Positions 7,507-55,659 of a stretch of 64,000 nucleotides of DNA are shown one piece after another. The position numbers were made by a program, and so were the translations under genes. The notes under the pieces are model-generated. The model had not been told where the DNA came from, ran no database searches, and was given only the letters and a program-made list of their open reading frames with translations. How positions within the stretch are numbered: the stretch's first letter is position 1; each line of letters opens with the position of its first letter. Location: NCBI GenBank assembly GCA_035577545.1, contig DATLVI010000009.1, positions 3,696 to 67,695 of the forward strand, in the 5' to 3' direction. The stretch comes from Verrucomicrobiia bacterium (lineage in GTDB: Bacteria > Verrucomicrobiota > Verrucomicrobiia > Palsa-1439).

Positions 7507-7587
7507 CCGGCCAGTTTCCCATTTTCGGGCACAGGGCGCAAGTATCGGATGGTCACAGCTGGTAAGTTGCGCTACGCTTCCGGGCCG

Positions 7588-17452: not shown

Positions 17453-20400
17453 ATGACCATGCCACATCCGCTCCGAGTGACCACGCACAATTTCCGCAAA
17501 TCCCTGAAGTCACTCGCGGCGGGAGCCATGGCCGTTGGATTGGCCCTATTCATAGGTGTGGGTGACACGCAGGCGCAGGTCACGTACAATTTTACCAATA
17601 CTGCAGCCACCGCTTTCCTCAGTGATCCCAACGCTTGGAGCCCGGTCGGTGGCCCCGGGACAAACCTCGACACCTTTACGATTCTACAGGCGGCGACGAA
17701 GACCCTGCGGCTGACCAACAATTTCTTGAACAATGGCTCGTTTCAAATCGGTGCCAGCGGGGGTGGCCAAACCCTCAATCTTACCCTGGACTTTGGAACG
17801 AACACATTTGTGGGCCTCAATGGGAATACAACCAGCGGCTCGGACTTCGTGTTTGGCCAACAGGGGACCACGATCGTTTACATTGCTTGTGGAAGCATGT
17901 ACAACACCAATGCTGGCGCGCCAACGGGCAATGCTCGCATGACTGTTGGACGCAACTCGGGTGCCGCGACATCCATCTTTTTCACCAACGGCACGTTCGT
18001 CGGGGGTATTACGGTCATAGCGAATAATGCCGGTGCAACCCCTTCACAACTGGTTGTGAGCGGTTCCGGGTCGTCGTGGTCAAATGCGAACGGCATGTCG
18101 ATTGGTAACGTAGCGCTGGCCAACAATTGCTCGTTGGCGATATCCAACTCGGCCTCCATGACCGTGATGAGCACTTTCCAATTGGGTTTCCAGGCTCCTT
18201 CCAGCTTTAATTCAGTCATTGTGGACTCGAGCGGGCAGCTATTCACCAGGAATCAGACCGCCACGATTGGCGCTGGCAGCGGTTCGTCAAATAATACAGT
18301 GACCGTACAAGGTGGCGGCATCTGGGATAATGGCGGACGAATCATTCAGGTCGGCAATACCACTGGCGTTGGGTCAAACAATTCACTCGTCGTGGGTAAT
18401 AATGGAGTGGTCTCCAACGTTACCGTGGTGACCATCGCTGCTGGGGATTCGCTGAAAATGGCGGGTGGGTTGCTGCGGGCATCGGTGGGAGTAACCAATA
18501 ACGCCGGCGCGATTACGGGCTTCGGTACGATTGCGGCCAATACTGCCTACACAGCGGGTACTTCGGCGCTGTCACTTGGTTCGGGAAGCTCGGTAGGAAC
18601 GCTTACGTTCACCAACAACCTCTCTCTCGTCTCGGGCACGACGACCAGAATCAAGTTGGACAGCAGTCAGTCCGGCAGCAATGATTTTCTCAACGTCCTT
18701 GGCACCCTGGCCAACGCCGGGACGATCACGATCGTCACCAACGGCACTGCGCCTCTTTCGGCGGGCGACGTTTACACGATTTTCGCGGCGGGAGCCTTGA
18801 GCGGCGGCTTTACCTCCAGCAACCTGCCGGCACTGGATCCGAGCTTGCGCTATGACCTCACGCAATTTCCCCAAGGCATTCTCAAGATCGTCCCGCAAGA
18901 AGTTGTGCCGGGGCTGACCGGCCCGACGAACCAGGTGATCCTCGTTGGCAGTAACGCCATCATTAGCGCCACCGTAACCGGTGTGCCGACACCGGGAGTG
19001 TACTGGCAGTACAACGGCAATAATATCACAGACGGCGCGACCGGAAACGGTTCGACGATTGCCGGAAGCCAGACCCTGACGCTGACTCTTTCGAATGGAC
19101 AGACCAACGACAGCGGCAGTTATTGCATCATTGCCACCAACAGTCAGGGCTCGGCGACGAACTGCATGGGCCTCACGGTCTCAAATGGCAACGTTCCGCC
19201 GAGTATCAGTGGCATGTCGGATCAGACCGTCATTCAGGGCAACAATGGCACGTTCAATGCCTCGGTTGCCGGCTCACCTTCGCCCGGGGTTAAATGGCAG
19301 GTCAACGGGATTGATATTCCCGGCGCGACGGGCATTCCGCTCATCCTGACGAATGTTCAATTTTCCCAGGACGGGTTCCTCTATACATTGATTGCGACCA
19401 ACAGCTCGGGCAGTGCAACCAATAGCCAGACGTTGCACGTCATTGTCGCCCCGATCATCGCCACGCAGCCGCAAAGTTTGGTGGTCACGCAGACGCAGAG
19501 CGCAACCTTCTGTGTGGTGTCCACCAATGGCGTGCCGACACCGACCTATCAATGGTTCTTCGGAAACAGCTCCATCCTGAACGCCACCAGTACATGCTAC
19601 ACGATTACGAGCGCGACTCCGGCTAACGCGGGCACCTACCGTGTCCGAATCACTAACACCGCGGGGACTATCGATAGCACCAACGTGACACTCACGGTTA
19701 ATTCCACGATGGCCGCTGTGCTGACGCCGGCCAACGGCGCTCCGAGCGTGTGTTACGATACGCCGCTGTTCATGGCGTTTGACCGCCTGCCTGTGTTGAA
19801 CGGCGCTGGTAAAGTCTCGATTTACAATGTGACCAATCCCGCGTCGGCTGTGGATACAATCGACACAAGTCTCGGTGTGCTGCAGTCGCGCACCATCGGC
19901 GGCGAAACATTCAGCACGTTCCCGGTCATCATCACCGGTACGACCGTCGCGATCTACCCGCATCTCGGCGTGTTGGGTACGAACCAGACGTATTTTGTCA
20001 CTGTGGACGCCGGCATCTTCACCGATACCAACGGCGCCTTGTATGCCGGCATCGTCAGCACAAACGGCTGGGTCTTCACGACCAAGCCCGCCGGCCCGGC
20101 TAATCCGCTCAATGTTATTGTGAGCACCAATGAGAGTGACGACTTCGCGACCGTCCAGGGCGCGGTGGATTCAGTGCCAGCGAACAACACGACGCCAACG
20201 TTGATCAATATCCGCAACGGCACCTACACGGAAATCGTCGACACGCGGCTCAAGAACAACATCACATTCCGCGGCCAGGACCGGACGAAGACGCGCGTTG
20301 GTTACCCCAATAACAATAATATCAACGGCAGCACGGCGAATCGTATGGCCTTCAAGATCAATGCCAACGATAACGCGATTGAGAACATGACCGTGACCAA

Positions 20401-21886
20401 TATGACGCCCAAGGGCGGGTCACAGGCCGAGGCAATCATGGTCAATACGGCGGCCAGGCGGTTCATTCTCAACTACGCGGAAGTGGACAGCTTCCAGGAC
20501 ACGATCCTCATCAACGACTTCAGCTCGCAGGCATACTTCTACAAGAGCTTGATCGTGGGTGATACGGACTTCATCTGGGGTGTTGGGAATCTTTTCGCTA
20601 CAAACTGTGAAATCCGCTCGGTGACTGGCGGCGCTTCGATTACCCAACCGCGAACTCCCGCCGGCAGCAACGGCTTGGACTTCGTGGACTGCCAGATTAC
20701 AAGAGGCGGCACGAATGTCACTAATACCACGTTCGGGCGCGCGCTCGGGTTCTGCGATGGCAATGCCGCCTTTATCAATTGCCAAATCGACAGCAATGTC
20801 GTGGGCTGGACAGCGGCGGATCTTACGGGGTGTCCGAATCTGCGGTGGTGGACCTACAACGACACCGACCTGCTCACGGGCAGCCCGCTGTCGTTTAACG
20901 GCGTCACCCTGACTAATGGCGATCCGAATCTGGCGTGTGCCTTAAGTCCGACCTGCTGGCTCAGCGGCTGGGTGCCGCAACTCGCCCCGAACATCTTGAC
21001 GAACCCGGTCAGCGTGACGGTCACAGCGGGCGTCAACGCGACATTCACCGTGGCTGCCACCGGTATTCCCGATCCGAACTATCAGTGGCTCAAGAATGGT
21101 GCGACCATCACCGGTGCGACGGGCCCCACGTTTGTCATCCCGAGCGCGCTGGCAGGCGACGCGGGAGGGTATTCCGTGATCGTTTCGAATATCGCGGGTT
21201 CAATCACCAGCGGCAGCGCGACGTTGACGGTCGTGGGCACGGGTCCATCGGCCAGCTTTACGGCGGCACCGACCAGTGGTACGGAACCGTTGGCTGTGAC
21301 CTTTACGGATACATCGAGCGGATCGCCGAACATCACCCTGTTCTGGGATCTTGGTGACAGCACCACAACGAATCTGGCGGGTGGGACTACCCTGGTGCAT
21401 TCGTATGCGGCAGGTACCTACACCGTAACCTTGACCGCGAGCAACGCCTTCGGCGCCAACAGCACGATTGTCTCGAACAACCTGATTACCGTGGTCACAG
21501 CATTCCAAGCGTGGCAATTGTCGCACTTCGGTTGCACCAACTGCCCACAGGCGGCCGCGAGTGCGGATCCCGATGGCGATGGCCAGAACAACCTCGCTGA
21601 ATTCCTGGCGGGGACTGACCCGAACAATAGCGCGTCGGGGTTACACATCAGCTCCGTGGCGCGATCCGGCAGTGACGTGGTCATCACATGGGCCACGGCC
21701 GGTGGGGCCACCAATGTTGTGCAGGCGACCGCAGGCGATGGGAACGGCGGGTACACCACCAACTTCAGCGATTTGAGTGGGCCCATCGTCATCACTGGCA
21801 GTGGTGATGCGAGCACGAACTATACGGATGTGGGCGGCGGAACGAACGTCCCGTCTCGCTACTATCGTGTGCGGTTGGCGCCATAG
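17453..21886 (+). CDS. Giant secreted modular pectin methylesterase of 1477 aa (signal peptide, beta-helix/PATR region, Ig-like domains, CE8 pectinesterase, Ig-like, PKD, conserved C-terminal domain).
   Basis: CE8 motifs: GSQAEAIMV, FQDTILIN and GDTDFIWG. The Ig-like units have a YQW[FY]xN motif. PKD domain: SASFTAAPTSGTEPLAVTFTDTSSG...WDLGDSTTT. The C-terminus ...AFQAWQLSHFGCTNCPQAAASADPDGDGQNNLAEFLAGTDPN...SRYYRVRLAP. Confidence 0.85.
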   Translation: MTMPHPLRVTTHNFRKSLKSLAAGAMAVGLALFIGVGDTQAQVTYNFTNTAATAFLSDPNAWSPVGGPGTNLDTFTILQAATKTLRLTNNFLNNGSFQIGASGGGQTLNLTLDFGTNTFVGLNGNTTSGSDFVFGQQGTTIVYIACGSMYNTNAGAPTGNARMTVGRNSGAATSIFFTNGTFVGGITVIANNAGATPSQLVVSGSGSSWSNANGMSIGNVALANNCSLAISNSASMTVMSTFQLGFQAPSSFNSVIVDSSGQLFTRNQTATIGAGSGSSNNTVTVQGGGIWDNGGRIIQVGNTTGVGSNNSLVVGNNGVVSNVTVVTIAAGDSLKMAGGLLRASVGVTNNAGAITGFGTIAANTAYTAGTSALSLGSGSSVGTLTFTNNLSLVSGTTTRIKLDSSQSGSNDFLNVLGTLANAGTITIVTNGTAPLSAGDVYTIFAAGALSGGFTSSNLPALDPSLRYDLTQFPQGILKIVPQEVVPGLTGPTNQVILVGSNAIISATVTGVPTPGVYWQYNGNNITDGATGNGSTIAGSQTLTLTLSNGQTNDSGSYCIIATNSQGSATNCMGLTVSNGNVPPSISGMSDQTVIQGNNGTFNASVAGSPSPGVKWQVNGIDIPGATGIPLILTNVQFSQDGFLYTLIATNSSGSATNSQTLHVIVAPIIATQPQSLVVTQTQSATFCVVSTNGVPTPTYQWFFGNSSILNATSTCYTITSATPANAGTYRVRITNTAGTIDSTNVTLTVNSTMAAVLTPANGAPSVCYDTPLFMAFDRLPVLNGAGKVSIYNVTNPASAVDTIDTSLGVLQSRTIGGETFSTFPVIITGTTVAIYPHLGVLGTNQTYFVTVDAGIFTDTNGALYAGIVSTNGWVFTTKPAGPANPLNVIVSTNESDDFATVQGAVDSVPANNTTPTLINIRNGTYTEIVDTRLKNNITFRGQDRTKTRVGYPNNNNINGSTANRMAFKINANDNAIENMTVTNMTPKGGSQAEAIMVNTAARRFILNYAEVDSFQDTILINDFSSQAYFYKSLIVGDTDFIWGVGNLFATNCEIRSVTGGASITQPRTPAGSNGLDFVDCQITRGGTNVTNTTFGRALGFCDGNAAFINCQIDSNVVGWTAADLTGCPNLRWWTYNDTDLLTGSPLSFNGVTLTNGDPNLACALSPTCWLSGWVPQLAPNILTNPVSVTVTAGVNATFTVAATGIPDPNYQWLKNGATITGATGPTFVIPSALAGDAGGYSVIVSNIAGSITSGSATLTVVGTGPSASFTAAPTSGTEPLAVTFTDTSSGSPNITLFWDLGDSTTTNLAGGTTLVHSYAAGTYTVTLTASNAFGANSTIVSNNLITVVTAFQAWQLSHFGCTNCPQAAASADPDGDGQNNLAEFLAGTDPNNSASGLHISSVARSGSDVVITWATAGGATNVVQATAGDGNGGYTTNFSDLSGPIVITGSGDASTNYTDVGGGTNVPSRYYRVRLAP

Positions 21887-21908
21887 GTAATAAATAAGCC
21901 AATAATCG

Positions 21909-21944
21909 CGAATGGCCATCCACGACAAGGTGGGTGGCCATTCG
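21909..21944 (+). terminator. Hairpin immediately 3' of the giant pectin methylesterase gene (15-bp arms with one mismatch and a 6-nt loop). No clear U-tract.
   Basis: CGAATGGCCATCCAC-GACAAG-GTGGGTGGCCATTCG, read from the sequence. Confidence 0.35.
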
Positions 21945-22071
21945 AACATGTTGCAGGTTCGTCGGAAGTGGAAGAAATGTTTGTTAGAAGTATAGTATCC
22001 CCATGACGGGAAGCAGGGTTATCGTTCGAGGGCGGAGTATGCACCGCCGGGGTGGGCGGTCATTAAGTAAA

Positions 22072-25000
22072 ATGCCCGGGTTGCACCACGTTTTTGCCGC
22101 ATTCCTGCTGTTTGTGTCCGCTGGATTGGCACGCGCCGGCACCCCTCCGCTCCCGACTTTCAACAGCAACCTCGTCTTCGACGTGACCAACACAGTGTTT
22201 GCCGGTGGTGCGCTGGGCGACGGCGTTTCCAACAACGCCGCGGCAATTCAAGCGGCCATCAACATGATCTCGACGAATATCGTCGCAGGCGCCACGGGTG
22301 GCACCGTTCGCGTGCGGGCCGTTGGGACGTTTACCAACTATTTGTCCGGACCAATTGCGCTCAAGAGCCACGTCAATCTCTTGATCGACACCAACACGAC
22401 GTTGACGATGCTCTCCATGGCCAATTGGCCGAGCACGATTACCTTCTTGAGCGGGGGCACGATTACTGATAGCGCGATCAGCGGCGCGGGGACGATCGAT
22501 GGCCATGCCTCATTTATCTCCGGCACCACGACGAATTGGTGGGGCACTTCGGGCGGCAATAATGCGGTTGCCAACCGCCCAAACATGATCGAGTACGACG
22601 GCAGTAAACGGGTGCTGATTCAGGGCGTGACGCTCCAGAACCCGCCCACCTTTCATATCATGGTGCATAACAACAACAACGGTCTGACGATCCAGAATAT
22701 CAAGATCGCCACCGCGAGCGGCTCGCAGAACACGGACGGCATCGATCTGGCCTCCACGAATGTGTTGATCCAGGGGTGTTCCATCAGCGACGGGGATGAC
22801 AATATCCAGATTGGTAGCAGTTCGGCGTTGGCGTCGGACATCACGATTACCAACTGCCTCTTCGGTAGTGGTCATGGCCTGTCGATTGGCAGTCCCACGC
22901 AAGCCGGGGTAAACAATCTTATCGTAAGCAACTGTACCTGGAATGGCTGCGAGTATGGCATACATATGAAGACCGACCGCGACATCGGCGGCTCGATTCA
23001 TGACCTGAAGTATCTCGACCTTGTCATGAGCAATGTGAATTTCTTCGTCGCGATCTACCCCTACTATCATCAAATTGGCTCGCCTTCGAGTAGCATTAAC
23101 GTCAGTCCTTTCATGGCGGCCACGGACACGGTCCACACCGTTACCGGTACGACCCCGATTTTCAAGAACATCACCATCAGCAACGTGACGGTGACTTCGA
23201 TCGGCGCAAATATCGCGGGAATCATTTGGGGATTACCGGAATCGCTCGTGTCCAACGTTAACATCTCGAAAGTCAGTATCGCCACGCATAACAAAACGCT
23301 TTGTATTTATAACAGCAAGGCCGTTCAAATCACTGACTCCACCCTGACCCTGCCCACCACCAGCACCAACACGTTGACGCTCTACAATGCTCAGGTCACC
23401 GTTACCAATAGCACCCTCAATGCGAATCCGGTGACAATGACCGGATTGGCCTACAATGGCACGAATACGCTGGTCTTCGGGACCAATACGCTCGCGTTCT
23501 TCAACGGCAACGCGAGTGTCGTCACCACCAACCTACTCGCCATCGGTTCCACCACACTGTCGGGCAGTACGCTGACCTTCAGTCAGAGTTCCATTACGTA
23601 TTCCAACCCACTGAATGTTCTTGCAGCCAGCACTTTCGTGGTCAGCGCCGGTACCAACATATTTAGCGGCGTACTGACTGGTCCCGGACCGTTGACGCTC
23701 AGTTTCGTTACACCGTCGTTCAGCATGTTATCGGTGCGGGGTAACTGGTCGGGCTTTAGCGGGACGGTTTCCAACGCCAACGGCGGCATTCTCCGCTTTG
23801 ATCAGGGAACGAATGCCTGGGGCGATGGCAATGCCGTGTTCGCAAACGGCCTTTCGGGAATCCTGAACAACCACGCGACAAATAGCATCATGATTTCACT
23901 GGGCGCTCTCTCGGGTGGGACGTCGTCGACCCTGGCCGGCAGCGACCAGACCGGGCCGGGGATCGACACCTATGCCATTGGCGGCCTCAACTCGAACACG
24001 ACATTTGATGGCACGATCACCGATGGGACAAGTCTCAGCACACCCCACACCGTCGCCCTGACGAAGGCTGGGAGTGGTAGCTTCACGATTTCTGGTGCCA
24101 ATACCTACTCCGGCGGCACGATGGTGAGCAACGGGACTCTGCTGGTGAACAACACCACCGGCAGTGGGACCGGCGCGGGTGCGGTCACCGTCGTCAGCGC
24201 CGGGACCTTGGGCGGTGGCGGTATCATCGGTGGATCGCTGACCGTGAGCGGTACACTGGCACCGGGGAATAGTCCCGGCACACTGACGATCAGCAACGAT
24301 GTGGTAGTCAATGGCGGCGCGGTCTTGCGATACGAGCTGGGCACGAATAGCGACCTGACGGTGGTGAGTGGAAACCTGACCTTGGGCGGTACGATCAATG
24401 TAATCGACGCTGGCGGGTTCACCAATACCGCGTACACACTGTTCACCTACGGCGGCGCGCTGACGTACAACGGCGTCACGATCGGCACCACGCCGAACAC
24501 CAACTTCACGTATGTGATTAACACCAATACCGCTGGTCTTGTGAAATTGGATGTTTCCGGTTCTGCAGCATCTCCGACAGCCAGTTTCACAGCCATTCCG
24601 ACCTCGGGCGTTGCGCCATTGGGAGTTACCTTCACGGATACTTCAACGGGATCGATCACTAATCTGTTCTGGGACTTTGGCGACAGCAGTACAACCAACA
24701 CGGCGGCAGCCGCTAACTTCGTGCACACGTACGGGGCTGTTGGCACGTACTCGGTGACGCTGGTTGCGAGCGGCCCGGGTGGCGATGGCACCAACTTTCA
24801 GTTGAATCTGGTCACGGTTCTCGATCCGTTCGTGGCATGGCAACTGCAATATTTTGGCTGCACCAACTGCGCACAGGCGGCGGGGGACGCCGATCCGTTG
24901 GGCAAAGGTATGAGCAACACAAATCAGTTTCTCGCGGGCCTCAACCCGACCAACGCGGCTTCGGCGCTACGGATCATCTCCGCCATGCGGCAAGGCAGCG

Positions 25001-25212: not shown

Positions 25213-25250
25213 AACATTCGCGCGGATGTAGAGAATAGGAGCACGTGGAT

Positions 25251-28904: not shown

Positions 28905-29088
28905 CACCCGCGGGACGCAAACGAAGACCTAACAGGCGTTTCTAGGAGCGTTTTCGCTCAATGAACAGCCATGCTATGCCGCTGGCGTGGACTTTACCGT
29001 CTGGATAGGGATAAACTATTGAATCTAAACAGCTCCCGCTTTGCGCAGCCCGGAGCGGGATGGTGACGGGTCTTGGAAGTAAATCATT

Positions 29089-32829: not shown

Positions 32830-32941
32830 TACGGCTTGTCCAAGCAACATGGCATACATGCGCCTGCATCAACCGCTCAGCAGAAAGCAGCACGGGTGGT
32901 GGACAAGGCTGGCCTTCGCCCCGATGCCGGGTTGGCCGATC

Positions 32942-36862: not shown

Positions 36863-36894
36863 TTTCCTCGAGAATAGAGAATGGAAACGTGAAC

Positions 36895-40653: not shown

Positions 40654-40665
40654 GGAGGGAGGACG

Positions 40666-43600
40666 ATGCGAAACAAATATCTCATAGCTGGAACGGCTGC
40701 ACTGGCGTGTTTTGGTGCGAATCTGTCGCAGGCCCAATTATTGAAGGTTGATATCAATAACACGTCCCGCGGGGATAATACCGCGCCGGGTTATCAGGCA
40801 TGGAATCTCGCCACAGACCTGGGCTCCAATAGTAATCGTGCTACACGCGTATTCACCAACGCCGCCAATAGCCCGATCTCCTGTACGGTTTCCCAAACGA
40901 CTCCCGTAATTGGGACTGCGAATATCGGCTTGAAAGCGGATTGGGGAAACAAGGACGGCAACAACACCAGCACCGATCCGAACGCGGGTTATCGACTGTC
41001 CGCCGATGGCGTGTTTGCGTTCAATTTTTCCGCCGGGATCCCCGCCACCAATGGCGGGGCCTTCTGTCTGATCGTCTCCAACCTCTCTGCGGGCGCGCAC
41101 ACGATCACGACCTATCACAATGACGAGTGGGGCAACCACGTTAACACCACCTGGCATGGCAGCAATAATTTCATGAGTAGTTGCGTGGTGAGCGTGGGCG
41201 GTGCTCCGGTGTTCACCAATACGCCGTCCTATTACGCTACCAACGACTTCAAATGCGGGTTCGCCTACTTCACGGTAAACGCCATCGACGGCCAGCCGCT
41301 GATAATCAATTTTGATCCCGCTCACAACAGCACCAGCAATCTGGATTTTGTCATTCTCAACGGCTTTGCGATTGATGGTCCGTTCCCCGGGACCACGGCG
41401 ACCGGGGCAATTCCGGGCGACGGCAACGAGCACGTCTTCGCCAATAACGACAGCCCCACTCCCGGTTCCGCAGGCACCGGCTTCACGACGCTCAGTTGGA
41501 CGCCTTCGGAGTTTGCGGTTTCGCATGATGTGTACTTTGGAACCGTCAGCAATGCGGTAAACATTGCCACCCACGCTTCGCCTGAATTCAAGGGCAACTT
41601 TACGACCAACATCTGGAACACCGCCACCAACCTGGATAGCGCCCTGACCTACTACTGGCGTATTGATGAGATTGATTCCACGAACGGTGTTTCCAGGGGC
41701 GCGGTTTGGCGTTTCCGGACACGTCACATCGCGTTCCCAACGGCGGAAGGGTATGGTCGCTTTGCCCGCGGCGGTCGCGGTGGCGTAGTCATCGAGGTGA
41801 CGAATACGAACGATTATGATACGACGATCGGTGAGCCCGTGATTCCCGGCAGTTATCGAGCGGCGATTGAAGCCAGTGGGCCACGCACGGTCGTCTTTCG
41901 TATCTCCGGGTTGATCCGACTCAAACGTCCCTGCACGATTAACAACACCAACGGCTATCTCACGGTCGCTGGGCAGACCGCGCCCGGTGATGGCATCTGC
42001 CTGAGCGGTTGGCGGGCGGGGATCAGCAGTTGCAGTGACGTGATCATGCGTTTTATCCGCCTCCGACTGGGAGAAGCCAGCAAGCAGTCCATGGACGGAA
42101 TTGGCCTGGGTAATTCCAGCGATTCCGTCATCGATCACTGCACAATCAGTTGGACCATCGACGAGTCCACCAGCTCCCGCCAGAGCGGCGCGGTGGGCAG
42201 CGGTTCGGCTAACATCACGTTCCAGCACAATATCATTTCGGAGGCGTTGGACCATTCCTATCACTACGACGATGCCCAGCGGGCGACCAATGGCTGCACT
42301 CAGTGCTATCAGCCGCATTCGTTTGCCGGTTCGATCAGTGGCGAGATCGCCAGCTATCACCACAACCTCTTGGCCCACTGCACGGGACGAAATTGGAGCA
42401 TGGCCGGCGGGTTGGATCAAAGCTCGCATTACGCGGGGTCGCTCGATATCCGCAACAATGTCGTTTACAACTGGACCTCCCGCACGACCGACGGCGGTGT
42501 GCAGCGCGGGAACTACGTGAACAATTACTACAAACCCTATACCAACGCCTCGTACTGCGTGAAATGGCTGTTCCGGCTCGACGCGATCAACCCGGTCTGG
42601 GGCACAGAAAGTTATTTCTTCGACGGCAATGTCATGGAAGGGCAGAATTACGATTCGAACAACTGGCAATTCGGTACGGCTGTGTTTGTTGGGGACGGCA
42701 GTACGTATGCGACTTCCAACCAATTGGCCGGCGTGCGGACCAATGCGGAAGTTTTCCCATCCTACGTTACGACGCAAACCGCTCGCGACGCGTTCAAGGT
42801 CGTGTTGTCAGATGTCGGCTGCAACCTCCCGGCGGCAGACGTGATCGATCAACGCGTCATCGGCGAGACACTTACCAAAACGGTCCATTACGAGGGGACC
42901 AATGGTCCAACGTATACCATCGACGGCGTGCCGCAACCCAGCCAAGCCAGTCCCAACCGGCCTGGCATCATCGACGCGACGACCGACGTCCACGACGTGC
43001 CCACGAACGCGCCTAATTATCCGTGGCCAACATACAACACCTACAACGTCGATGTGGATTCCGATCACGATGGGCTGCCGGATTGGTGGGAAATTCTCCA
43101 CGGGACCAATCCCAATTCGTCGCCGGGCGATTTCTCCGACAGCAACGCCGATCCGGACGGCGATGGCTACTCGAACCTTGAGGATTACCTGAACTGGCTC
43201 GCCGCGCCACACGCGACTTGTGCGCAGGATTCATCGGTCAATCTGGATCTAAGCCAATTCACCGCTGGCTTCACCAATGTCCCCGTTTACACTGTGTTCA
43301 GTCCAACGCTCGGAACGGTTGCTATCCTCGGAGACGGCAAGACAGCGCAGTTTACTCCAACACCGGGCACCAACGGATTGGCTGGCTTTTCTTTCTCCGT
43401 CACCGACGCCGTGGGCAGCACCTTGACGAATTCTATCGGCATCCACGTAACGCCGACGGTTGCGCCGCCGCTGACAGCGTTCCAGCAATGGCAAATGCAA
43501 TACTTCAATTCGACAAATAGCGCCGACGCGGACGCCAATGCCGATCCCGACGGGGACGGCCAGAATAATATGGCGGAATTTCTCTCAGGTACGATCCCGA

Positions 43601-43863
43601 CCAATGCGATCTCGGCATTCCGAATCATTTCGGCGGTACGCCAAAGCAACGATGTGGTCGTGACGTGGACAACGGCTGGCGGATTCACGAACGCCGTGCA
43701 GACGGTGCCGGGAGACGTGAACGGCAGTTACACGACGAATTTCACGGACCTGAGCGGGCCGCTCATCATCTCTGGGAGTGGGGATGTGACAACCAATTAT
43801 GTGGACGGCGGCGCGGCAACGAATGTTCCATCTCGCTACTATCGGATCCGTCTTGTGCCCTAG
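40666..43863 (+). CDS. Large secreted modular PL1-like pectate/pectin lyase of 1065 aa (N-terminal unknown module, Fn3-like, right-handed beta-helix lyase domain, TSP3-like Ca-binding repeats, conserved C-terminal domain).
   Basis: Strong Shine-Dalgarno GGGAGGGAGG upstream. Signal peptide MRNKYLIAGTAALACFGANLSQA. Lyase hallmarks: FPTAEGYGRFARGGRGGVVIEVTNTNDYD..., RFIRLRLG, DGIGLGNSSDSVIDHCTISW and ITFQHNIISE. Internal DSDHDGLPDWWE...DPDGDGYSNLEDYLNWL. The C-terminus ...AFQQWQMQYF...DPDGDGQNNMAEFLSGTIPTN...SRYYRIRLVP. Confidence 0.8.
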   Translation: MRNKYLIAGTAALACFGANLSQAQLLKVDINNTSRGDNTAPGYQAWNLATDLGSNSNRATRVFTNAANSPISCTVSQTTPVIGTANIGLKADWGNKDGNNTSTDPNAGYRLSADGVFAFNFSAGIPATNGGAFCLIVSNLSAGAHTITTYHNDEWGNHVNTTWHGSNNFMSSCVVSVGGAPVFTNTPSYYATNDFKCGFAYFTVNAIDGQPLIINFDPAHNSTSNLDFVILNGFAIDGPFPGTTATGAIPGDGNEHVFANNDSPTPGSAGTGFTTLSWTPSEFAVSHDVYFGTVSNAVNIATHASPEFKGNFTTNIWNTATNLDSALTYYWRIDEIDSTNGVSRGAVWRFRTRHIAFPTAEGYGRFARGGRGGVVIEVTNTNDYDTTIGEPVIPGSYRAAIEASGPRTVVFRISGLIRLKRPCTINNTNGYLTVAGQTAPGDGICLSGWRAGISSCSDVIMRFIRLRLGEASKQSMDGIGLGNSSDSVIDHCTISWTIDESTSSRQSGAVGSGSANITFQHNIISEALDHSYHYDDAQRATNGCTQCYQPHSFAGSISGEIASYHHNLLAHCTGRNWSMAGGLDQSSHYAGSLDIRNNVVYNWTSRTTDGGVQRGNYVNNYYKPYTNASYCVKWLFRLDAINPVWGTESYFFDGNVMEGQNYDSNNWQFGTAVFVGDGSTYATSNQLAGVRTNAEVFPSYVTTQTARDAFKVVLSDVGCNLPAADVIDQRVIGETLTKTVHYEGTNGPTYTIDGVPQPSQASPNRPGIIDATTDVHDVPTNAPNYPWPTYNTYNVDVDSDHDGLPDWWEILHGTNPNSSPGDFSDSNADPDGDGYSNLEDYLNWLAAPHATCAQDSSVNLDLSQFTAGFTNVPVYTVFSPTLGTVAILGDGKTAQFTPTPGTNGLAGFSFSVTDAVGSTLTNSIGIHVTPTVAPPLTAFQQWQMQYFNSTNSADADANADPDGDGQNNMAEFLSGTIPTNAISAFRIISAVRQSNDVVVTWTTAGGFTNAVQTVPGDVNGSYTTNFTDLSGPLIISGSGDVTTNYVDGGAATNVPSRYYRIRLVP

Positions 43864-43891
43864 GATTTGAAAAACTCGATATAAAGATAAT

Positions 43892-45472
43892 ATGAAACTG
43901 ATACCCTGCTTCAATTCATGTGCCATCGCCGCCTTACTCTGCATCGCACCCTTCACGATGGCGCAAACAATGCCGACTGACGGCTTTTTCAATGTCCTCA
44001 GTTTTGGCGCCTCGCCGGACGGGCAGGCGAAGTGCACCGAGGCGATTGGCAAAGCCATCGACGCGGCCTCGGCCAAAGGCGGGGGGACGGTGTATTTTCC
44101 AGCCGGTACGTATCTGACCGGGCCGATTCATCTCCAGAGCCATATCACATTATACGTGGATGCCGGCGCGACGCTGAAATTCAGCACCAACTTCGATGAT
44201 TACCTGCCCATGGTGTTGTCGCGGTGGGAAGGGATTGTCGTGACAAATTTCTCGCCATTGATTTATGCGTACAAGGCGCAGGACATCGCCATCGTTGGCC
44301 GGGGCACCCTCGATGGGCAAGGGCAGGCATGGTGGGACTTCTATCGAAAGATCTCACGGGGGACGAATGCGGTACCGCGGAGCAAATGGCAGGAAGAATT
44401 CACTCGCCTGAACAAAGACACGATCGCCGAGTTGAATTACCGGCTGCTCGACATCGGTTTCCTGCGACCGCCGTTTATCCAACCGAATGAATGCAGCAAC
44501 GTGCTGGTCGAGGGCGTTACTATCCGGAATTCGCCGTTTTGGAATGTCACCCCGGTCTTTTGTGAGAATGTCAACGTCCGTGGCGTCACCATCATCAGTC
44601 CTCCGACGTCACCCAATACGGACGGCATCAACCCCGATTCATGTCGCAACATCCGTATCTCGGATTGCTACATCAGCGCGGGAGATGACTGCATCACCAT
44701 CAAATCGGGCCGTGACGCCAATGGCCGGCGCGCCGGGCGGCCGCTGGAGAATTGCACGATTGTGAATTGCACGCTCCTCCGCGGCCATGGCCTGTCCATT
44801 GGGAGCGAGATGTCTGGTGGCGTGAAAAACCTGACGATTGCCAATTGCGTGTTCGATGGCACCGACCACGGTATTCGCATCAAATCCACCCGTGGTCGCG
44901 GCGGTGTCATTGAAGACGTTCGGATCAGTAATCTCGTGATGCGCAATATTCGTCAGGATGCGATATTGCTCACGACGTTTTATACGAAGACGCAACCCGA
45001 GCCGGTATCGGAGCGCACGCCCATCTTTCGCAATATCCATTTCAGCGGCATTACGGGCGACGCAAAGATCGCCGGCGAACTAACCGGCCTCGAAGAAATG
45101 CCCCTCGAGAATATTACGTTCGACGACATCCAGCTTGACGCCAAAACCGGTTTCGCGTTGAAGGATGTCAAGGGGATTGAGTTTCATAACGTCACCGTCA
45201 ACACGGAGAGCGGGCCGGCCATCACGGCGACGACCACCGAAGGGTTGGAGATTGATGGAGTTAAAACTGCAAAGGCGCACCCGGGGACACCCGTTATCGA
45301 TTTGGGCAAGGTCAAGAGTGTATTTGTGCGAGGCTGTGTGGCCGCGCCGGAGACAGAAACATTTCTGCGCGTGAACGAGGACTCCGCGGACGAGGTAACG
45401 CTGGAAGGTAATAATCTGAAGGCGGCGAAGACGGCGGTGGAAAAGGTTAAGGGCAACAGTTCGGCTAACTAA
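43892..45472 (+). CDS. Secreted GH28 polygalacturonase / exo-poly-alpha-galacturonosidase, 526 aa, single domain with no C-terminal anchor module.
   Basis: Signal peptide MKLIPCFNSCAIAALLCIAPFTMAQ. GH28 motifs: PNTDGINPDS, GDDCITIKSG, GHGLSIGSE and IRIKSTRGRGG. Confidence 0.9.
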   Translation: MKLIPCFNSCAIAALLCIAPFTMAQTMPTDGFFNVLSFGASPDGQAKCTEAIGKAIDAASAKGGGTVYFPAGTYLTGPIHLQSHITLYVDAGATLKFSTNFDDYLPMVLSRWEGIVVTNFSPLIYAYKAQDIAIVGRGTLDGQGQAWWDFYRKISRGTNAVPRSKWQEEFTRLNKDTIAELNYRLLDIGFLRPPFIQPNECSNVLVEGVTIRNSPFWNVTPVFCENVNVRGVTIISPPTSPNTDGINPDSCRNIRISDCYISAGDDCITIKSGRDANGRRAGRPLENCTIVNCTLLRGHGLSIGSEMSGGVKNLTIANCVFDGTDHGIRIKSTRGRGGVIEDVRISNLVMRNIRQDAILLTTFYTKTQPEPVSERTPIFRNIHFSGITGDAKIAGELTGLEEMPLENITFDDIQLDAKTGFALKDVKGIEFHNVTVNTESGPAITATTTEGLEIDGVKTAKAHPGTPVIDLGKVKSVFVRGCVAAPETETFLRVNEDSADEVTLEGNNLKAAKTAVEKVKGNSSAN

Positions 45473-47733
45473 TGACGGAACAGGAGACGATGGTGGGACA
45501 AAAGTTCTTCTTGGCGTGGGCTGCCGCGCTCATGCTGGTCTGCCTTGGCGCCAGCCAACAAGTGGTGGCGCAAACGAATCTTGTTGCCGCAATGATCGGC
45601 ACCAACCAATTCAAGACGGTTCAGGAAGCGATCAACGCCACGCCGCAGAACGCCAGCGCGGCCAACCCCTGCATGATCCACGTGAAGCCGGGGGTTTACA
45701 AAGAGTTGATCCACGTCCAGCACGAGAAACGCTACGTCCATCTCATTGGTGAAGACGCAAACAAGACGGTGCTGACGTACGACCTGAACGCGAAACTTTT
45801 GGGCGTCGACGGCAAGCCGGTCGGCACGTTTCGCACGCCGTCGGCGGTGATCGATGCGGACGATTTCTCCGTGGAGAACATTACCTTCGAGAACTCCGCG
45901 GGTCCCGTCGGACAGGCCCTGGCAATTCGCGTGGATGGCGACCGTGTGGTGTTTCGCAACTGCCGGTTCCTCGGTTGGCAGGACACCATCCTGGTGAACC
46001 GTGGCCGCCAGTACTTCGAAAACTGCTACATCGCGGGACACGTTGATTTTATTTTCGGCGGCGCAACGACATTCTTCGAGAGCTGCCATATTCATTGTCT
46101 GTCGAATGGTTATGTCACTGCGGCTTCGACGCCGGAGGAACATCCCTACGGTTTTGTCTTCTCGAACTGCAAGATTACCGGTGAATCACCCGGCGTGCGG
46201 ACCTATCTGGGCAGGCCCTGGCGTGCGTTCTCCAGCGTGACGTATCTGAATACCGAGATGTCCGGCGTCGTCACCAACGTCGGTTGGAACAATTGGAAAG
46301 ACCCGACCCGCGAAAAAACGGCGCGTTACGCTGAATTCGACAGTAGCGGTCCCGGCGCGAATCCACAGGCGCGTGTGCCATGGTCGCGTCAACTAAGCAA
46401 GGCGGAAGCCGACGTGATCACCCCGCAAGAAGTCCTGGGTGGCGTGGATGGATGGAACCCGAAGACGGGTTCCACCAGGCGAATACCTGCTGGGAACACA
46501 ACGAAGGCCGCTGTACCGCCCGACCTGACGGTTGCGGGAGACGGTAGTGGAGATTTCAAAACGATTCAGGATGCGCTGGACTCGGTGCCGCGCGACAATC
46601 GGCAACGCACCATTATTTTTATCAAGGACGGCCTGTATCATGAAAAAGTGCGGATTGACCCCGGGTTCGTCACGCTCCGCGGCCAGAGTCGGGACGGCAC
46701 GCGCGTCGAATTCCCCCAAGGGGCCGATGATTTCACCAACCACCCGGACAAGGTCGGGCGCGCGGTCGTCAATATCAACGGCAGCGATTGTGTCTTGCAA
46801 AACCTCACTGTCAAGAACACGCACGGCATCATCGGCCCGCACGCCTTCGCGATTTATGGCCATGGCGACAAAACCGTGATCGTGGACTGCAATGTATGGA
46901 GCCAGGGTGCGGACACACTCGCATTGTGGGGTGATCGGAGTGGGTCCTACCAGGCACGTCTCGACATCTGCGGCTCGGTGGACTTCGTGTGCCCACGCGG
47001 CTGGTGTTATATGACCGATTGCTCCCTGCACCAGGTCAATCCCAAAGCCGACGCGACCATTTGGCATGACGGGGCCAAGGACGCAGATATGAAATTTGTC
47101 CTGCGCAATTGCCGGTTTGAGGGGGTGGGGGACATGCCGAGCTGGATTCTGGCCCGCCATCACCACGACGCCCAGTTCTACCTGCTGGACTGCAGCTTCT
47201 CCAAGACCCTGAGTAATCGACCGCCGTTGCGCGTCATTTATCCGCTTAACCACGGCGAGCCGAGTGAGGCGGACAAGAAGAGAAACCACGATTTGGACGC
47301 CAGCAACATTTGGGGCGAACATGCATACTTCTACAACTGCCACCGCGACGGTGGCGATTACACCTGGCACAAGGACAACTTATCTTCCGCGACGAATTCA
47401 CCGGAGCCCGAGCAGATGACGGCGGCTTGGGCGTTTGCGGGGAAATGGGATCCCGAACGACACGCCGGTCCGACCATTCGAAGCGTTAAACAACAAGATG
47501 CTCGGTTCGAGGTTGTCTTCAGCGAGAGCGTTACGGTGAAGGGCAAGCCGCAACTCGTCTTGAAATCTGGTAAAGTCGCCGGCTACGTTTCCGGTGGTGG
47601 AACGGATACCTTGAACTTTGCAATTCCTTCGGGGCAACAAGAAATGGTTGGTGGAGTGAATCTACGAGATGGGGCGATCATTGCCTCGGAGGCGGCCGCC
47701 ACTCTGCGTGTTGCCGATCTGTCATTGCCTTGA
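45472..47733 (+). CDS. Secreted tandem-domain CE8 pectin methylesterase of 753 aa: a canonical N-terminal PME plus a second, divergent PME-like domain.
   Basis: Domain 1: FKTVQEAINATP, GQALAIRV, WQDTILVN, GHVDFIFGG and YLGRPW. Domain 2: GDFKTIQDALDSVP, AFAIYG, QGADTLAL and GSVDFVCP. The start codon overlaps the previous stop (TAATG). Confidence 0.85.
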   Translation: MTEQETMVGQKFFLAWAAALMLVCLGASQQVVAQTNLVAAMIGTNQFKTVQEAINATPQNASAANPCMIHVKPGVYKELIHVQHEKRYVHLIGEDANKTVLTYDLNAKLLGVDGKPVGTFRTPSAVIDADDFSVENITFENSAGPVGQALAIRVDGDRVVFRNCRFLGWQDTILVNRGRQYFENCYIAGHVDFIFGGATTFFESCHIHCLSNGYVTAASTPEEHPYGFVFSNCKITGESPGVRTYLGRPWRAFSSVTYLNTEMSGVVTNVGWNNWKDPTREKTARYAEFDSSGPGANPQARVPWSRQLSKAEADVITPQEVLGGVDGWNPKTGSTRRIPAGNTTKAAVPPDLTVAGDGSGDFKTIQDALDSVPRDNRQRTIIFIKDGLYHEKVRIDPGFVTLRGQSRDGTRVEFPQGADDFTNHPDKVGRAVVNINGSDCVLQNLTVKNTHGIIGPHAFAIYGHGDKTVIVDCNVWSQGADTLALWGDRSGSYQARLDICGSVDFVCPRGWCYMTDCSLHQVNPKADATIWHDGAKDADMKFVLRNCRFEGVGDMPSWILARHHHDAQFYLLDCSFSKTLSNRPPLRVIYPLNHGEPSEADKKRNHDLDASNIWGEHAYFYNCHRDGGDYTWHKDNLSSATNSPEPEQMTAAWAFAGKWDPERHAGPTIRSVKQQDARFEVVFSESVTVKGKPQLVLKSGKVAGYVSGGGTDTLNFAIPSGQQEMVGGVNLRDGAIIASEAAATLRVADLSLP

Positions 47734-47757
47734 ACAACAACTCATGAGGAACCAGCG

Positions 47758-49068
47758 ATGAAATTGAACTGCAAAATAATTCTTACGATGACCCTGTGGA
47801 TGGCACTGCTGTTTGTTACCGCGGGCCCGGCGAATGGCATACTGTCGCTCGTCTTTGATGTCAAAGAAACCGGTGCGAAGGGCGACGGTAGAACATTGGA
47901 CACGGACGCGATCCAGAAGACGCTTGATGATTGCGGGAAGGCGGGCGGCGGGACGGTAAGATTTCGTGCTGGCACGTACCTGAGCAAACCGGTTGTTCTT
48001 CGTGGCAATACCACCGTGCAACTGGATGCCGGCGCAACGCTGTTGGCGACGGACGATCCGGCTGACTTTGCCGGGAGTAGTTCAAACTCTTTCATCCCGT
48101 TTATCAGTGGAAAAAAACTTCGCAATGTTACCATCACGGGTCAGGGGATCATCGACGGCTCAGGCGCGAAGTGGTGGATCCCCGCCGAGGCCGCCCGACA
48201 AAAGACGCCGGGTTACACGCTGCCCCGTCCAAATCTGGTTGTGTTAACGGGTTGCACGAATCTGCGCATCGAGAATATCACGCTGCAAAACTCACCCAAG
48301 TTCCATTTGGTACCGACCGATTGCGACGGCGTGATTATCTCGAACGTGACAGTCCTCGCTCCCGCCCACGCGGCGAACACCGACGCGATTGATCCCAGTG
48401 CCTGCCGGAATGTGGTGATTACAAAATGCCGCATTGACGTGGGCGATGACAACATCGCCATCAAGGCCGGCAAGGCCATGCCGGGGCGGCCTTTCGCGTG
48501 CGAGAACATTACCGTTACCGACTGCACGTTCCTGCATGGGCATGGGATGTCAATTGGCAGCGAAACTGCCGGAGGCGTGCGCAATGTCACGGTGCGAAAC
48601 TGCACATTTGAAAATACGGAGAATGGGATTCGCATCAAATCACAACGGGGCAGGGGAGGTATCGTCGAGAACATCAGCTATAGCGACATCACCATGAAGA
48701 ATGTCGATCCCGCGATCACGTTGACCAGCTACTACATGTTCAACTCTGCCGGCGATGCCAAACAAAAATCCGAGCCCGCCAAGGACACCGCCCAGCCTCT
48801 TGCCGCCGGGACGCCGATTTATCGGAATATCCACATCAACAACCTGACCGCCACCTGCCAGAAAGCGGCGGGGATCATCATTGGTTTACCGGAAAGCCTG
48901 ATCTCCGACGTCACATTGGAGAATGTCCAGATCACCTCCGCAACGACCGGTTTGAAGATTCAAAACGCCAAGGGAATAGAATTCAAGAACGTGCAAATCG
49001 CCGCCAAGCAGGGTCCTCCCGTTATCCTGGACAACGCCGAAGTGGCTGGTGTCGCGGCGACGAAATAA
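47758..49068 (+). CDS. Secreted GH28 polygalacturonase, 436 aa.
   Basis: Signal peptide MKLNCKIILTMTLWMALLFVTAGPANG. GH28 motifs: ANTDAIDPS, GDDNIAIKAG, GHGMSIGSE and IRIKSQRGRGG. Confidence 0.9.
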   Translation: MKLNCKIILTMTLWMALLFVTAGPANGILSLVFDVKETGAKGDGRTLDTDAIQKTLDDCGKAGGGTVRFRAGTYLSKPVVLRGNTTVQLDAGATLLATDDPADFAGSSSNSFIPFISGKKLRNVTITGQGIIDGSGAKWWIPAEAARQKTPGYTLPRPNLVVLTGCTNLRIENITLQNSPKFHLVPTDCDGVIISNVTVLAPAHAANTDAIDPSACRNVVITKCRIDVGDDNIAIKAGKAMPGRPFACENITVTDCTFLHGHGMSIGSETAGGVRNVTVRNCTFENTENGIRIKSQRGRGGIVENISYSDITMKNVDPAITLTSYYMFNSAGDAKQKSEPAKDTAQPLAAGTPIYRNIHINNLTATCQKAAGIIIGLPESLISDVTLENVQITSATTGLKIQNAKGIEFKNVQIAAKQGPPVILDNAEVAGVAATK

Positions 49069-52581: not shown

Positions 52582-52675
52582 GTGGTGGCCCCACAACAGA
52601 GGCCTCCCTCCCAAGCGCGCTGATTTGGCTTCTCCCGGGCCAACTTATTTGCTATAAGTAAGGAGACTCGTGCTG

Positions 52676-55582: not shown

Positions 55583-55659
<77 letters not shown>

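Follow-up and report, generated by a model that had tools for sequence, protein, structure and literature searches.

Clusters of carbohydrate-active enzymes (CAZymes) are known from Verrucomicrobiota and Planctomycetota, with those of fucoidan-degrading Lentimonas and of freshwater and peat Verrucomicrobia as examples, and they comprise co-directional genes for secreted glycan-degrading enzymes without SusC/SusD, in hosts which use PEP-CTERM and N-methylation-site proteins. In the pectin PULs of Bacteroidetes (e.g. the homogalacturonan and RG PULs of B. thetaiotaomicron), GH28, PL1 (including subfamily 2), CE8 and GH105 enzymes are clustered with a regulator and a link to hexuronate metabolism, and pectinolysis in Dickeya/Pectobacterium and Bacillus runs from a methylesterase through lyases and polygalacturonases to an ExuT-type importer, KduI/KduD and UxaC. 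The locus described here resembles all of these. It lies within a stretch of 64,000 nucleotides (the window), on a contig whose proteins NCBI labels as Verrucomicrobiae bacterium, and is, with good confidence from its sequence, a homogalacturonan (pectin) depolymerisation locus of this uncultured soil or peat bacterium, represented by a MAG. The cluster is real but fairly ordinary, being a non-Bacteroidetes CAZyme cluster of a kind already known. Its one unexplained feature is a shared C-terminal domain, which we consider worth following up.

Ten co-directional genes (g1-g10; Table 1) span positions 17453-49068, from the ATG of the first to the stop codon of the last, exactly as originally predicted; every ORF between these points lies on the forward strand, and the intergenic gaps range from -1 to approximately 185 bp. 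The original prediction, made from the same DNA, had counted nine genes including six giants and four copies of GH28. We count ten genes, of which seven (g1-g7) encode giants of 1065-1477 aa and three (g8-g10) smaller enzymes, and GH28 is present five times according to Pfam (g2, g5, g6, g8 and g10). The three predicted PL1 copies were located in g3 (Pfam, E 3e-13), g4 (through PDB 5GT5) and g7 (missed by Pfam and recognised through PDB 9BUJ), CE8 was indeed found, in g1 and g9, and the Ig, PKD, Fn3 and PATR modules named at that time are all present. There are three CE8 domains, one in g1 (matching PDB 1GQ8 and 3UW0) and two in g9, and one of the three is degenerate. That 10 out of 10 consecutive genes match three pectin-active families is far above what chance would produce. 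Each of the ten proteins begins with a hydrophobic, Sec-type signal-like segment, signal peptides having been called by a hydropathy heuristic alone. The Gly/Asn/Thr-rich residues 42-483 of g1 match no family, and the top NCBIfam model for g8 is an exo-acting alpha-D-galacturonidase (NF049892, E 3e-76, below its cut-off). Base composition is uniform across the locus and so gives no hint of recent import, and scans for promoters and terminators returned results at chance level; the operon structure is thus a candidate one.

Table 1. Positions, strands and supporting matches of the features found in the window.
Feature	Position	Strand	Description	Evidence
uxaC (glucuronate/galacturonate isomerase)	2-739	-	N-terminal half only; gene runs off window start	NCBIfam NF002794, E 2e-96, model 1-250 of 459
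uxaE (tagaturonate epimerase)	744-1922	-		Pfam PF16257, E 5e-118
AraC-family regulator	2035-2889	+	Cupin + HTH_18; divergent from uxaE	Pfam
MFS transporter	3031-4635	+	Anion:cation symporter (ACS; ExuT/D-galactonate) subfamily	Pfam MFS_1, E 3e-43; NCBIfam TIGR00893, E 3e-57, below cut-off
kduD (2-dehydro-3-deoxy-D-gluconate 5-dehydrogenase)	4642-5400	-		NCBIfam TIGR01832, E 7e-99, 330 bits vs cut-off 339
kduI (5-dehydro-4-deoxy-D-glucuronate isomerase)	5406-6236	-		NCBIfam NF002091, 407 bits vs cut-off 250
GH88/GH105-type unsaturated uronyl hydrolase	6298-7998	-	ORF start probably over-extended	Pfam PF07470, E 1e-80, residues 212-547
Stand-alone ConA-like lectin-fold module with PEP-CTERM anchor	11271-12239	-	322 aa; C-terminal TM-like stretch, KD 2.19	Pfam PEP-CTERM PF07589
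Gly/Asn/Thr-rich protein	12687-15542	-	951 aa; shared C-terminal domain	Domain by tblastn + alignment
Prepilin-type N-methylation-site / DUF1559-like protein	16413-17174	+	Directly 5' of g1	Pfam N_methyl
g1	17453-21886	+	1477 aa; signal peptide, Gly/Asn/Thr-rich region 42-483, Ig x3, Big_5, CE8, Ig, PKD, C-terminal domain	Pfam
g2	22003/22072-25212	+	1069/1046 aa; signal peptide, GH28, PATR-containing repeat region, PKD, C-terminal domain	Pfam GH28, E 3e-40
g3	25245/25251-28904	+	~1217 aa; signal peptide, ConA-like module, Ig x3, PL1, Ig, C-terminal domain	Pfam Pectate_lyase_4, E 3e-13
g4	29089-32829	+	1246 aa; architecture as g3	Residues 565-1026 vs PDB 5GT5 (PelN pectate lyase), E 4e-131
g5	32942-36862	+	~1306 aa; signal peptide, GH28, PATR-like region, PKD, Big_7, Fn3, ~300-aa C-terminus	Pfam
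g6	36895-40653	+	1252 aa; signal peptide, ConA-like module, Ig x3, GH28, PATR-like region, C-terminal domain	Pfam
g7	40666-43863	+	1065 aa; signal peptide, N-terminal module 25-330, PL1 subfamily-2-like beta-helix, TSP3, Big_9, C-terminal domain	PDB 9BUJ (PfPL1), E 1e-36
g8	43892-45472	+	526 aa; signal peptide, GH28	Pfam, E 3e-51
g9	45472-47733	+	753 aa; signal peptide, canonical CE8, second degenerate CE8-like domain, ~110-aa tail	Pfam Pectinesterase, E 1e-95, two stretches
g10	47758-49068	+	436 aa; signal peptide, GH28	Pfam, E 3e-63
C-terminal domain, reference copy (g2)	24820-25209	+		
C-terminal domain, other array copies	21494-21883, 28503-28901, 32434-32826, 40252-40650, 43471-43860	+		
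C-terminal domain, copy in 951-aa protein	12690-13106	-		

The flanking genes had been listed as uxaC, uxaE, an AraC regulator, exuT, kduD, kduI and GH105, and Pfam and NCBIfam models confirm this set upstream of the array. The pathway they belong to was described as incomplete in the window, and this is so, with none of uxuA, uxuB, kdgK and kdgA found in the 64 kb. UxaE, whose pathway has been described in Thermotoga, diverts flux into the UxuB/UxuA branch, and the absence of uxaA and uxaB is therefore to be expected. Taken together, these genes suggest a route in which two CE8 esterase domains, that of g1 and the first of g9, would strip methyl esters, leaving the PL1 lyases (g3, g4 and g7) and GH28 hydrolases to cleave the polygalacturonate backbone. 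The giants, which add a ConA-like lectin-fold module, Ig-like repeats, PKD and PATR-containing repeats to the catalytic beta-helix, would probably act on the polymer, extracellularly or at the cell surface, and g8-g10 would probably finish the oligomers. No outer-membrane uptake component was found in the window; import of the products would occur via the ExuT-type MFS transporter. Unsaturated products would then pass to GH88/105, KduI and KduD, and galacturonate to UxaC and UxaE, with UxuB, UxuA and KdgK/KdgA presumably encoded elsewhere in the genome. Expression is presumably under the control of the local AraC-family regulator.

The link between pectinolysis and hexuronate catabolism, which had been proposed from this window, is also seen in other genomes. 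Each of the 71 related loci belongs to a Verrucomicrobiota MAG, in most cases one from peat or soil (SPRUCE, palsa/bog and MFD), which together with the NCBI protein labels agrees with the initial impression of a PVC-type genome. The synteny comparison proposed with the original prediction revealed that the array genes recur in related Verrucomicrobiia MAGs with their order shuffled, the order g7-g8-g9 or g8-g9-g10 being retained. A g4-type PL1 gene lies within approximately 2.3 kb of uxaE-araC in two of these loci (L038 and L047), where orthologues of the AraC regulator (82-83% identity) occupy the same position, and uxaE orthologues (80-83% identity) adjoin PL1 genes in these two and in L021. 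Full-length homologues of the prepilin-type protein directly 5' of g1 are found upstream of pectinase arrays in three further loci (L014, L022 and L023).

Paralogous modules within the array share 49-56% protein identity and 60-78% DNA identity. By blastp, g3 and g4 are 55% identical over their full length, and g6 is 40% identical to g3 over residues 1-741 and 56% identical to g5 across the GH28 part. On these alignments g6 is mosaic, its N-terminal half being of the g3/g4 type and its GH28 half of the g5/g2 type. The ConA-like module is likewise shared, by the N-termini of g3, g4 and g6 and the stand-alone PEP-CTERM protein, whose copy is 45% identical to residues 2-303 of g4. Counterparts in related MAGs (approximately 90% for g4 and 90-91% for g8/g10) are far closer than the paralogs in the window are to each other. 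The low identity between paralogs, the closer counterparts elsewhere and the mosaic nature of g6 point to old duplications followed by domain shuffling, and so the paralogy of the array, as read from sequence, is old and mosaic and not a product of recent tandem duplication. The local tandem duplication that had been suggested (25251 with 29089; 22072, 32942 and 36895) is therefore too simple, in that the copies are old (49-56% at the protein level) and reshuffled.

Six of the seven giants, together with the 951-aa protein upstream (which has no Pfam or PDB match, and whose composition suggests a beta-solenoid), end in a shared domain of approximately 125-130 aa. By tblastn g5 does not carry it. 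In this domain an amphipathic helix and a TSP3/EF-hand-like calcium loop (one DPDGDG loop-helix) precede an Fn3-like sandwich, and the closest folds are Fn3 modules. It matches no Pfam or NCBIfam model, with sub-threshold matches to EF-hands only. The original prediction saw C-terminal anchor modules here, and the shared domain is real, but the anchoring is a hypothesis: the domain is soluble and Fn3-like, is missing from g5 and has no hydrophobic stretch (in the array proteins, KD over any 15 aa peaks at 0.6-1.2). Nearby, a membrane anchor can be recognised only in the separate 322-aa protein, as a PEP-CTERM signal. The domain may plausibly play a part in anchoring or sorting, and this common ending marks the six giants and their neighbour as one exported class.

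Known types of C-terminal module do not account for the domain. NCBI names g7 as having a T9SS C-terminal sorting domain, but there is no match to the T9SS C-terminal-domain HMMs of either type A or type B, and the array proteins lack the C-terminal hydrophobic stretch of PEP-CTERM/exosortase substrates. Dockerin identity was rejected since a single loop-helix is followed by an Fn3-like sandwich, in place of duplicated F-hands of approximately 22 residues. For a type V autotransporter, no autotransporter barrel family was matched, and Pfam finds the PATR repeat in g2 only.

What the domain does could be explained in two ways. It may quite possibly be a structural, stabilising or carbohydrate-/calcium-binding module of the Fn3 type with no sorting role, its position reflecting shared descent and domain shuffling, and the extensive shuffling within the array is in line with this. 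However, on cargo as varied as nucleases and FecR-domain proteins, such a module would not be expected always to occupy the very end of the chain and to keep a conserved motif there. Across the 71 loci, 123 of 134 copies lie at the extreme C-terminus, as do approximately 143 of the 150 best representatives, and the domain is found in hundreds of Verrucomicrobiia proteins, almost always terminally. Of the copies, 96% end in Pro, and RYYRVRLVP is the consensus tail. More tentatively, these features could report on a previously undescribed sorting or docking tag specific to the Verrucomicrobiia lineage, which would act in the manner of a T9SS C-terminal domain, PEP-CTERM or dockerin and serve dedicated export or a surface-held, multi-enzyme assembly for pectin degradation. 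The domain is carried by unrelated cargo (GH28, PL1, PL9, PL11, CE8, GH88, GH5, nuclease, FecR and LRR proteins), in several copies per locus and many per MAG, and 83 of 109 carriers have an N-terminal signal-like segment. It is also more conserved between otherwise unrelated proteins of the window (66-78% protein identity) than the catalytic paralogs are, an excess that recent gene conversion does not account for, the DNA being only 64-77% identical. Set against a tag are the missing hydrophobic anchor, the lack of an identified partner protein or export machinery and of any T9SS, PEP-CTERM or dockerin model match, the generic Fn3-like sandwich, of a type common in CAZymes as a passive spacer, and the presence in the array of four proteins without the domain (g5 and g8-g10). 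If a tag were nevertheless correct, the array would encode a surface-organised assembly that depends upon it, functionally the equivalent in PVC bacteria of T9SS cargo or of cellulosomes.

As regards substrate, it is rather unlikely that the main target is another uronic-acid polymer, such as rhamnogalacturonan, a pectin-like Sphagnum polymer in peat or a microbial exopolysaccharide, although the largely peat and soil origin of the relatives would fit this. So would the replacement of the substrate-binding RIK by HMK in g2 and g5, the action on decorated pectins of PfPL1 (the nearest solved relative of g7), the matches of the GH28s to NCBIfam rhamnogalacturonidase and galacturonidase models, all below their cut-offs, and the PL9 and PL11 enzymes which bear the same C-terminal domain in related loci. 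However, CE8, PL1, GH28, GH105, KduI/KduD and UxaC form the classic homogalacturonan set, and no PL4, PL11, GH106 or rhamnose genes occur within the window.

The loss of catalytic residues from the GH28, PL1 or CE8 domains was considered from the outset as evidence against homogalacturonan depolymerisation, our preferred reading; in almost every domain of the array the catalytic motifs are preserved. The GH28 domains score 139-215 bits against Pfam PF00295 (cut-off 22.9; E about 1e-40 to 1e-63), and all five have the NTD, GDD and GHG motifs that hold the three catalytic Asp and the His, with RIK/RLK kept in g6, g8 and g10. The PL1 motifs are WIDH 711 and RLPRLR 824 in g3, and WIDH 734 and RCVPRLR 847 in g4. 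In g7, IDHC and the proton-abstracting first Arg are kept, but SRTPRL has become GRNWSM, with loss of the Pro and second Arg of the R-x-P-R motif; the R-N-W-S core found in place of R-T-P-R is conserved in five orthologues, and it was not possible to place the residue numbers of the PfPL1 paper on its printed sequence. Measured against carrot PME (Q113, Q135, D136, D157 and R225), the CE8 set is complete in g1 (Q991, Q1015-D1016, D1039 and R1096), where the Trp of GRPW is missing, and in the first domain of g9 (Q148, Q170-D171, D192 and R248), and in the second domain of g9 both catalytic Gln are replaced, by His and Ala. That large parts of these proteins are non-catalytic (Ig, PKD and PATR-containing repeats) and that a few motifs are non-canonical might suggest adhesins or pseudo-enzymes with inert beta-helix domains, but with catalytic triads and bases kept in all but one domain and the deviant motifs conserved among orthologues, this is highly improbable.

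Compared with the Bacteroidetes pectin PULs, then, the locus differs in having no SusC/SusD pair, as originally predicted and as upheld by a Pfam scan in which no ORF scanned across the 64-kb window matched a TonB-receptor or SusD family. None of the signal peptides seen was of the lipoprotein type, the locus encodes giant, multi-modular enzymes with a different C-terminal domain, and the regulator is of the AraC type in place of a hybrid two-component system. Relative to Dickeya/Pectobacterium and Bacillus, where most enzymes have a single domain and leave the cell through the T2SS or Sec, the route here runs through UxaE and not UxaB/UxaA. With other Verrucomicrobiota and Planctomycetota CAZyme clusters it shares its layout, being distinguished by its specificity for pectin, and we found no description in the literature of the lectin-Ig-catalytic-Ig/PKD-C-terminal domain architecture. 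The ConA-like module may be compared with the galectin-like YesU of B. subtilis (PDB 1OQ1), which is encoded in the rhamnogalacturonan utilisation cluster; identity is only 13%, and in the window the module forms part of enzymes or is joined to a PEP-CTERM anchor. The C-terminal domain itself resembles the T9SS C-terminal domain, PEP-CTERM and dockerin in being a short, conserved module at the extreme C-terminus of many unrelated secreted proteins of one lineage. The T9SS domain likewise has a beta-sandwich, and dockerin a calcium-binding loop-helix, but the domain here differs from PEP-CTERM in having no transmembrane segment and from dockerin in having a single calcium loop rather than a duplicated F-hand.

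The region between 17453 and 49068 holds ten plus-strand ORFs, here called g1 to g10, whose families, assigned by Pfam, NCBIfam and PDB sequence searches, comprise five GH28, three PL1 and two CE8 genes. The original prediction had placed this pectinolytic array correctly and its general description holds, but it had counted nine genes, six giant proteins and four GH28 copies where we find ten, seven (g1 to g7) and five (g2, g5, g6, g8 and g10). The window derives from a 209-kb metagenome contig (ENA ERZ27256708, k141_981692), and the corresponding NCBI protein records are HXI82942-HXI82958, 'MAG TPA: Verrucomicrobiae bacterium'. GC content is flat (0.53-0.60 across the window and 0.56-0.60 in the array), so the array is not marked as foreign, and horizontal import was rejected on this ground. 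Promoter and terminator signals in the array were no more frequent than expected from shuffled sequence and therefore do not inform on operon structure. Scans for Rfam families, tRNAs and tandem repeats found no match inside the array, and the only Rfam matches in the window are two tRNAs.

Coordinates of the array genes, selected modules and neighbouring features in the window
Feature	Position	Strand	Length	Assignment
uxaC	2-739	-		
uxaE	744-1922	-		
AraC-family regulator	2035-2889			
MFS transporter	3031-4635			ACS family
Two TPR-rich genes	8022-11172			one with PMT_2 domain
Two-copy repeat	10875-11073		102 bp	codes for TPR units
PEP-CTERM protein	11271-12239	-		~260 aa module
orf951	12687-15542	-	951 aa	no family
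N-methylation-site gene	16413-17174			DUF1559-like, prepilin-type
g1	17453-21886	+	1477 aa	CE8
g2	22003/22072-25212	+	1069/1046 aa	GH28
g3	25245-28904	+	~1217 aa	PL1
g3, ~260 aa module	25314-26099	+		
g4	29089-32829	+	1246 aa	PL1; PDB 5GT5 PelN, E 4e-131
g4, ~260 aa module	29158-29997	+		
g5	32942-36862	+	~1306 aa	GH28
g5, C-terminal region	35969-36859		~300 aa	no family
g6	36895-40653	+	1252 aa	GH28
g6, ~260 aa module	36970-37770	+		
g7	40666-43863	+	1065 aa	PL1 subfamily 2-like; PDB 9BUJ PfPL1, E 1e-36
g8	43892-45472	+	526 aa	GH28
g9	45472-47733	+	753 aa	two CE8-type domains
g9, second CE8-like domain	46510-47733		residues ~347-753	
g10	47758-49068	+	436 aa	GH28
Phospholipase C	52670-55540			Phosphoesterase, PLipase_C_C
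tRNA-Met (CAT)	55583-55659	-		Rfam
orf750	55883-58135		750 aa	seven GloVer repeats
tRNA-Leu (CAA)	62941-63027	+		Rfam

Catalytic motifs are retained in nearly all of the GH28, CE8 and PL1 domains, so the array does not read as a set of pseudo-enzymes, a possibility raised alongside the original prediction. All five GH28 domains keep the NTD, GDD and GHG motifs, which hold the three catalytic Asp residues and the His, and in those of g2 and g5 HMK replaces the conserved substrate-binding RIK, which may shift their substrate specificity. Alignment to the carrot pectin methylesterase 1GQ8 shows a complete CE8 site (both Gln, both Asp and Arg) in g1 and in the first domain of g9. In g9's second CE8-like domain, His and Ala occupy the two catalytic Gln positions, which makes methylesterase activity unlikely; this domain may serve in binding or catalyse another reaction, and is followed by a tail of ~110 aa that has no family assignment. 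The PL1 domains of g3 and g4 carry the WIDH and R-x-P-R-x-R motifs. The Pfam PL1 model does not match g7 at all, but g7 retains an Arg in alignment with the one that abstracts the proton in PfPL1 (PMC11229556). Its sequence here is R-N-W-S, compared with R-x-P-R in PfPL1 and in more distant CTD-bearing PL1 homologues from related MAG loci (the CTD being the C-terminal domain discussed below). The R-N-W-S core recurs in five g7 orthologues (72-84% identity), so we regard it as a conserved variant rather than a sign of decay.

Each of the ten array proteins has a hydrophobic, signal-like segment at its N-terminus, and none has a TM-like C-terminal stretch. A common Ig-like module occurs in four copies each in g1, g3 and g4 and in three in g6, with a fifth, weak match in g1 that overlaps its PKD domain; a phospholipase C encoded downstream also has one copy, which shows that this genome uses the module as a building block more generally. 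A second module, of ~260 aa and without a Pfam family, stands at the N-terminus of g3, g4 and g6 and makes up the whole ectodomain of a PEP-CTERM protein upstream (45% identity to g4). Its 365 database relatives are mostly PEP-CTERM proteins of ~310 aa from Verrucomicrobiae and Planctomycetes. This module is predicted to fold as a ConA-like jelly roll, and the nearest solved structure to the predicted fold is B. subtilis YesU. A PDB sequence search with the lectin-module profile gave no match, as did one with orf750, a GloVer-repeat protein. The giant g6 is a mosaic that joins a g3/g4-type N-terminal half to a g5/g2-type GH28-PATR half. At Pfam E <= 1 and NCBIfam E <= 10, no family was found for the ConA-like module, the N-terminal module of g7, residues 1-490 of g1, the C-terminal 300 aa of g5 or the CTD.

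The CTD is a unit of ~125 aa common to g1, g2, g3, g4, g6 and g7, and to orf951, which is rich in Gly, Asn and Thr and carries a signal peptide. Among the giants only g5 lacks the unit and has its own C-terminal region instead. The CTD runs from F-x-x-W-Q-x-x-Y-F through A-D-P-D-G-D-G-x-x-N-x-x-E-F-L-A-G-x-x-P to a last part of ~75 aa finishing R-Y-Y-R-V-R-L-V-P-stop. It matches no model in Pfam or NCBIfam, and its profile gave only sub-threshold matches to PDB sequences (EF-hand loops and Fn3; 3MPC). For orf951, too, Pfam, NCBIfam and PDB sequences gave no match; its composition points to a beta-solenoid. Scanning species-representative genomes for the CTD turned up at least 303 copies. The best 80 matches, in 71 distinct loci, all come from peat and soil MAGs of Verrucomicrobiota, one of them labelled Limisphaerales; across these loci the CTD reaches the stop codon in 123 of 134 copies and the carrier ORFs have a median length of 939 aa. 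An exhaustive profile search returned 868 clusters (50% identity) at E <= 1e-30, and in ~143 of the best 150 of these the CTD sits at the last protein residue. One 1012-aa database protein, P0241, is an exception to this C-terminal rule, with three internal profile matches and no single terminal copy. Partner domains include GH28, PL1, PL9, PL11, CE8, GH88, GH5, a non-specific nuclease, FecR and LRR.

Between unrelated window proteins the CTD is 66-78% identical (64-77% at the DNA level), compared with 49-56% between catalytic paralogs. This conservation pattern, together with the distribution of the domain, is what would be expected of a sorting or docking tag. However, the CTD has no hydrophobic anchor and is linked to no known machinery, and Fn3 modules often act as passive spacers, so we consider a tag function possible but rather doubtful. 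The 'anchor modules' of the original prediction are thus real as a shared C-terminal unit of six giants, whilst their anchoring role is putative. The NCBI name given to g7 (HXI82950.1), 'T9SS C-terminal target domain-containing protein', was rejected as no T9SS model matches.

The same genes recur, in varying order, in related Verrucomicrobiota MAG loci that bear the CTD (L-numbers). Locus L034 has a g6-type GH28 (71% identity) with g8, g9 and g10 (80-91%) but not g7, whilst g7-g8-g9 is kept in L033, L008 and L017. A g4-type PL1 gene lies ~2.3 kb from uxaE-araC in L038 and L047, and in L021 a PL1 gene lies ~4 kb from uxaE, with no araC match. The in-window paralogs are much less alike than g4, g8 and g10 are to their counterparts in related MAGs (~90% identity), so the duplications are old and the array has been rebuilt by shuffling. 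The local tandem duplication proposed earlier is therefore not borne out as a recent event; recent duplication or gene conversion was also rejected because paralogous modules share only 60-78% DNA identity.

Upstream of the array lie uxaC, uxaE, the AraC-family regulator, the MFS transporter, kduD, kduI and a GH88/105 hydrolase, and the window has no SusC/SusD gene and no uxuA, uxuB, kdgK or kdgA, all as first described; given UxaE, UxaA and UxaB are not needed. Between the hexuronate genes and the array are two TPR-rich genes; one of them includes a PMT_2 domain (ArnT-like glycosyltransferase) and has homologues near pectinase arrays in L014 and L023. Directly before g1 is an N-methylation-site gene, which takes an equivalent place in L014, L022 and L023; its homologues occur in 12 of the 71 CTD-bearing loci, a co-occurrence too weak to interpret. 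The array is followed, beyond 49068, by unrelated genes for a methyltransferase, a sulfatase-fold protein, the phospholipase C, the GloVer-repeat protein and Mo-hydroxylase subunits. The repeats of orf750 are of the TIGR03803 type ('choice-of-anchor tandem repeat'), and homologues of ~44% identity adjoin pectinase genes in L011 (12629-13612) and L019 (849-1841).

Judging from gene content, secreted CE8 enzymes would remove esters from the polymer, and the PL1 and GH28 giants, with their lectin-like, Ig and PKD modules, would depolymerise pectin on the cell surface or outside it. Processing of the oligomers may fall to the small GH28 and CE8 enzymes, and import of the products to the MFS transporter, with GH105-KduI-KduD and UxaC-UxaE leading them towards KDG and the AraC regulator putatively controlling the set.

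Verrucomicrobiota are abundant in peat and soil and, to our knowledge, their breakdown of plant polymers is largely unknown. Together with its rearranged versions in soil MAGs (SPRUCE, palsa, Danish and others), the array offers a concrete, testable enzyme set for pectin turnover in these carbon-rich habitats. Should the CTD turn out to act in sorting or docking, it would mark out the exported proteome of an entire uncultured lineage and suggest that PVC bacteria have a so far undescribed way of exporting or tethering proteins; should it be no more than an Fn3 spacer, the array would count as a routine CAZyme cluster. Our literature searches returned no description of the CTD or of this modular architecture. 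The enzymology is that of classic pectinolysis and of Bacteroides pectin PULs, and the genetic design is that of CAZyme clusters without SusC/D already known in PVC bacteria; as far as those searches show, the modular architecture is undescribed, and so, most notably, is the lineage-wide CTD.
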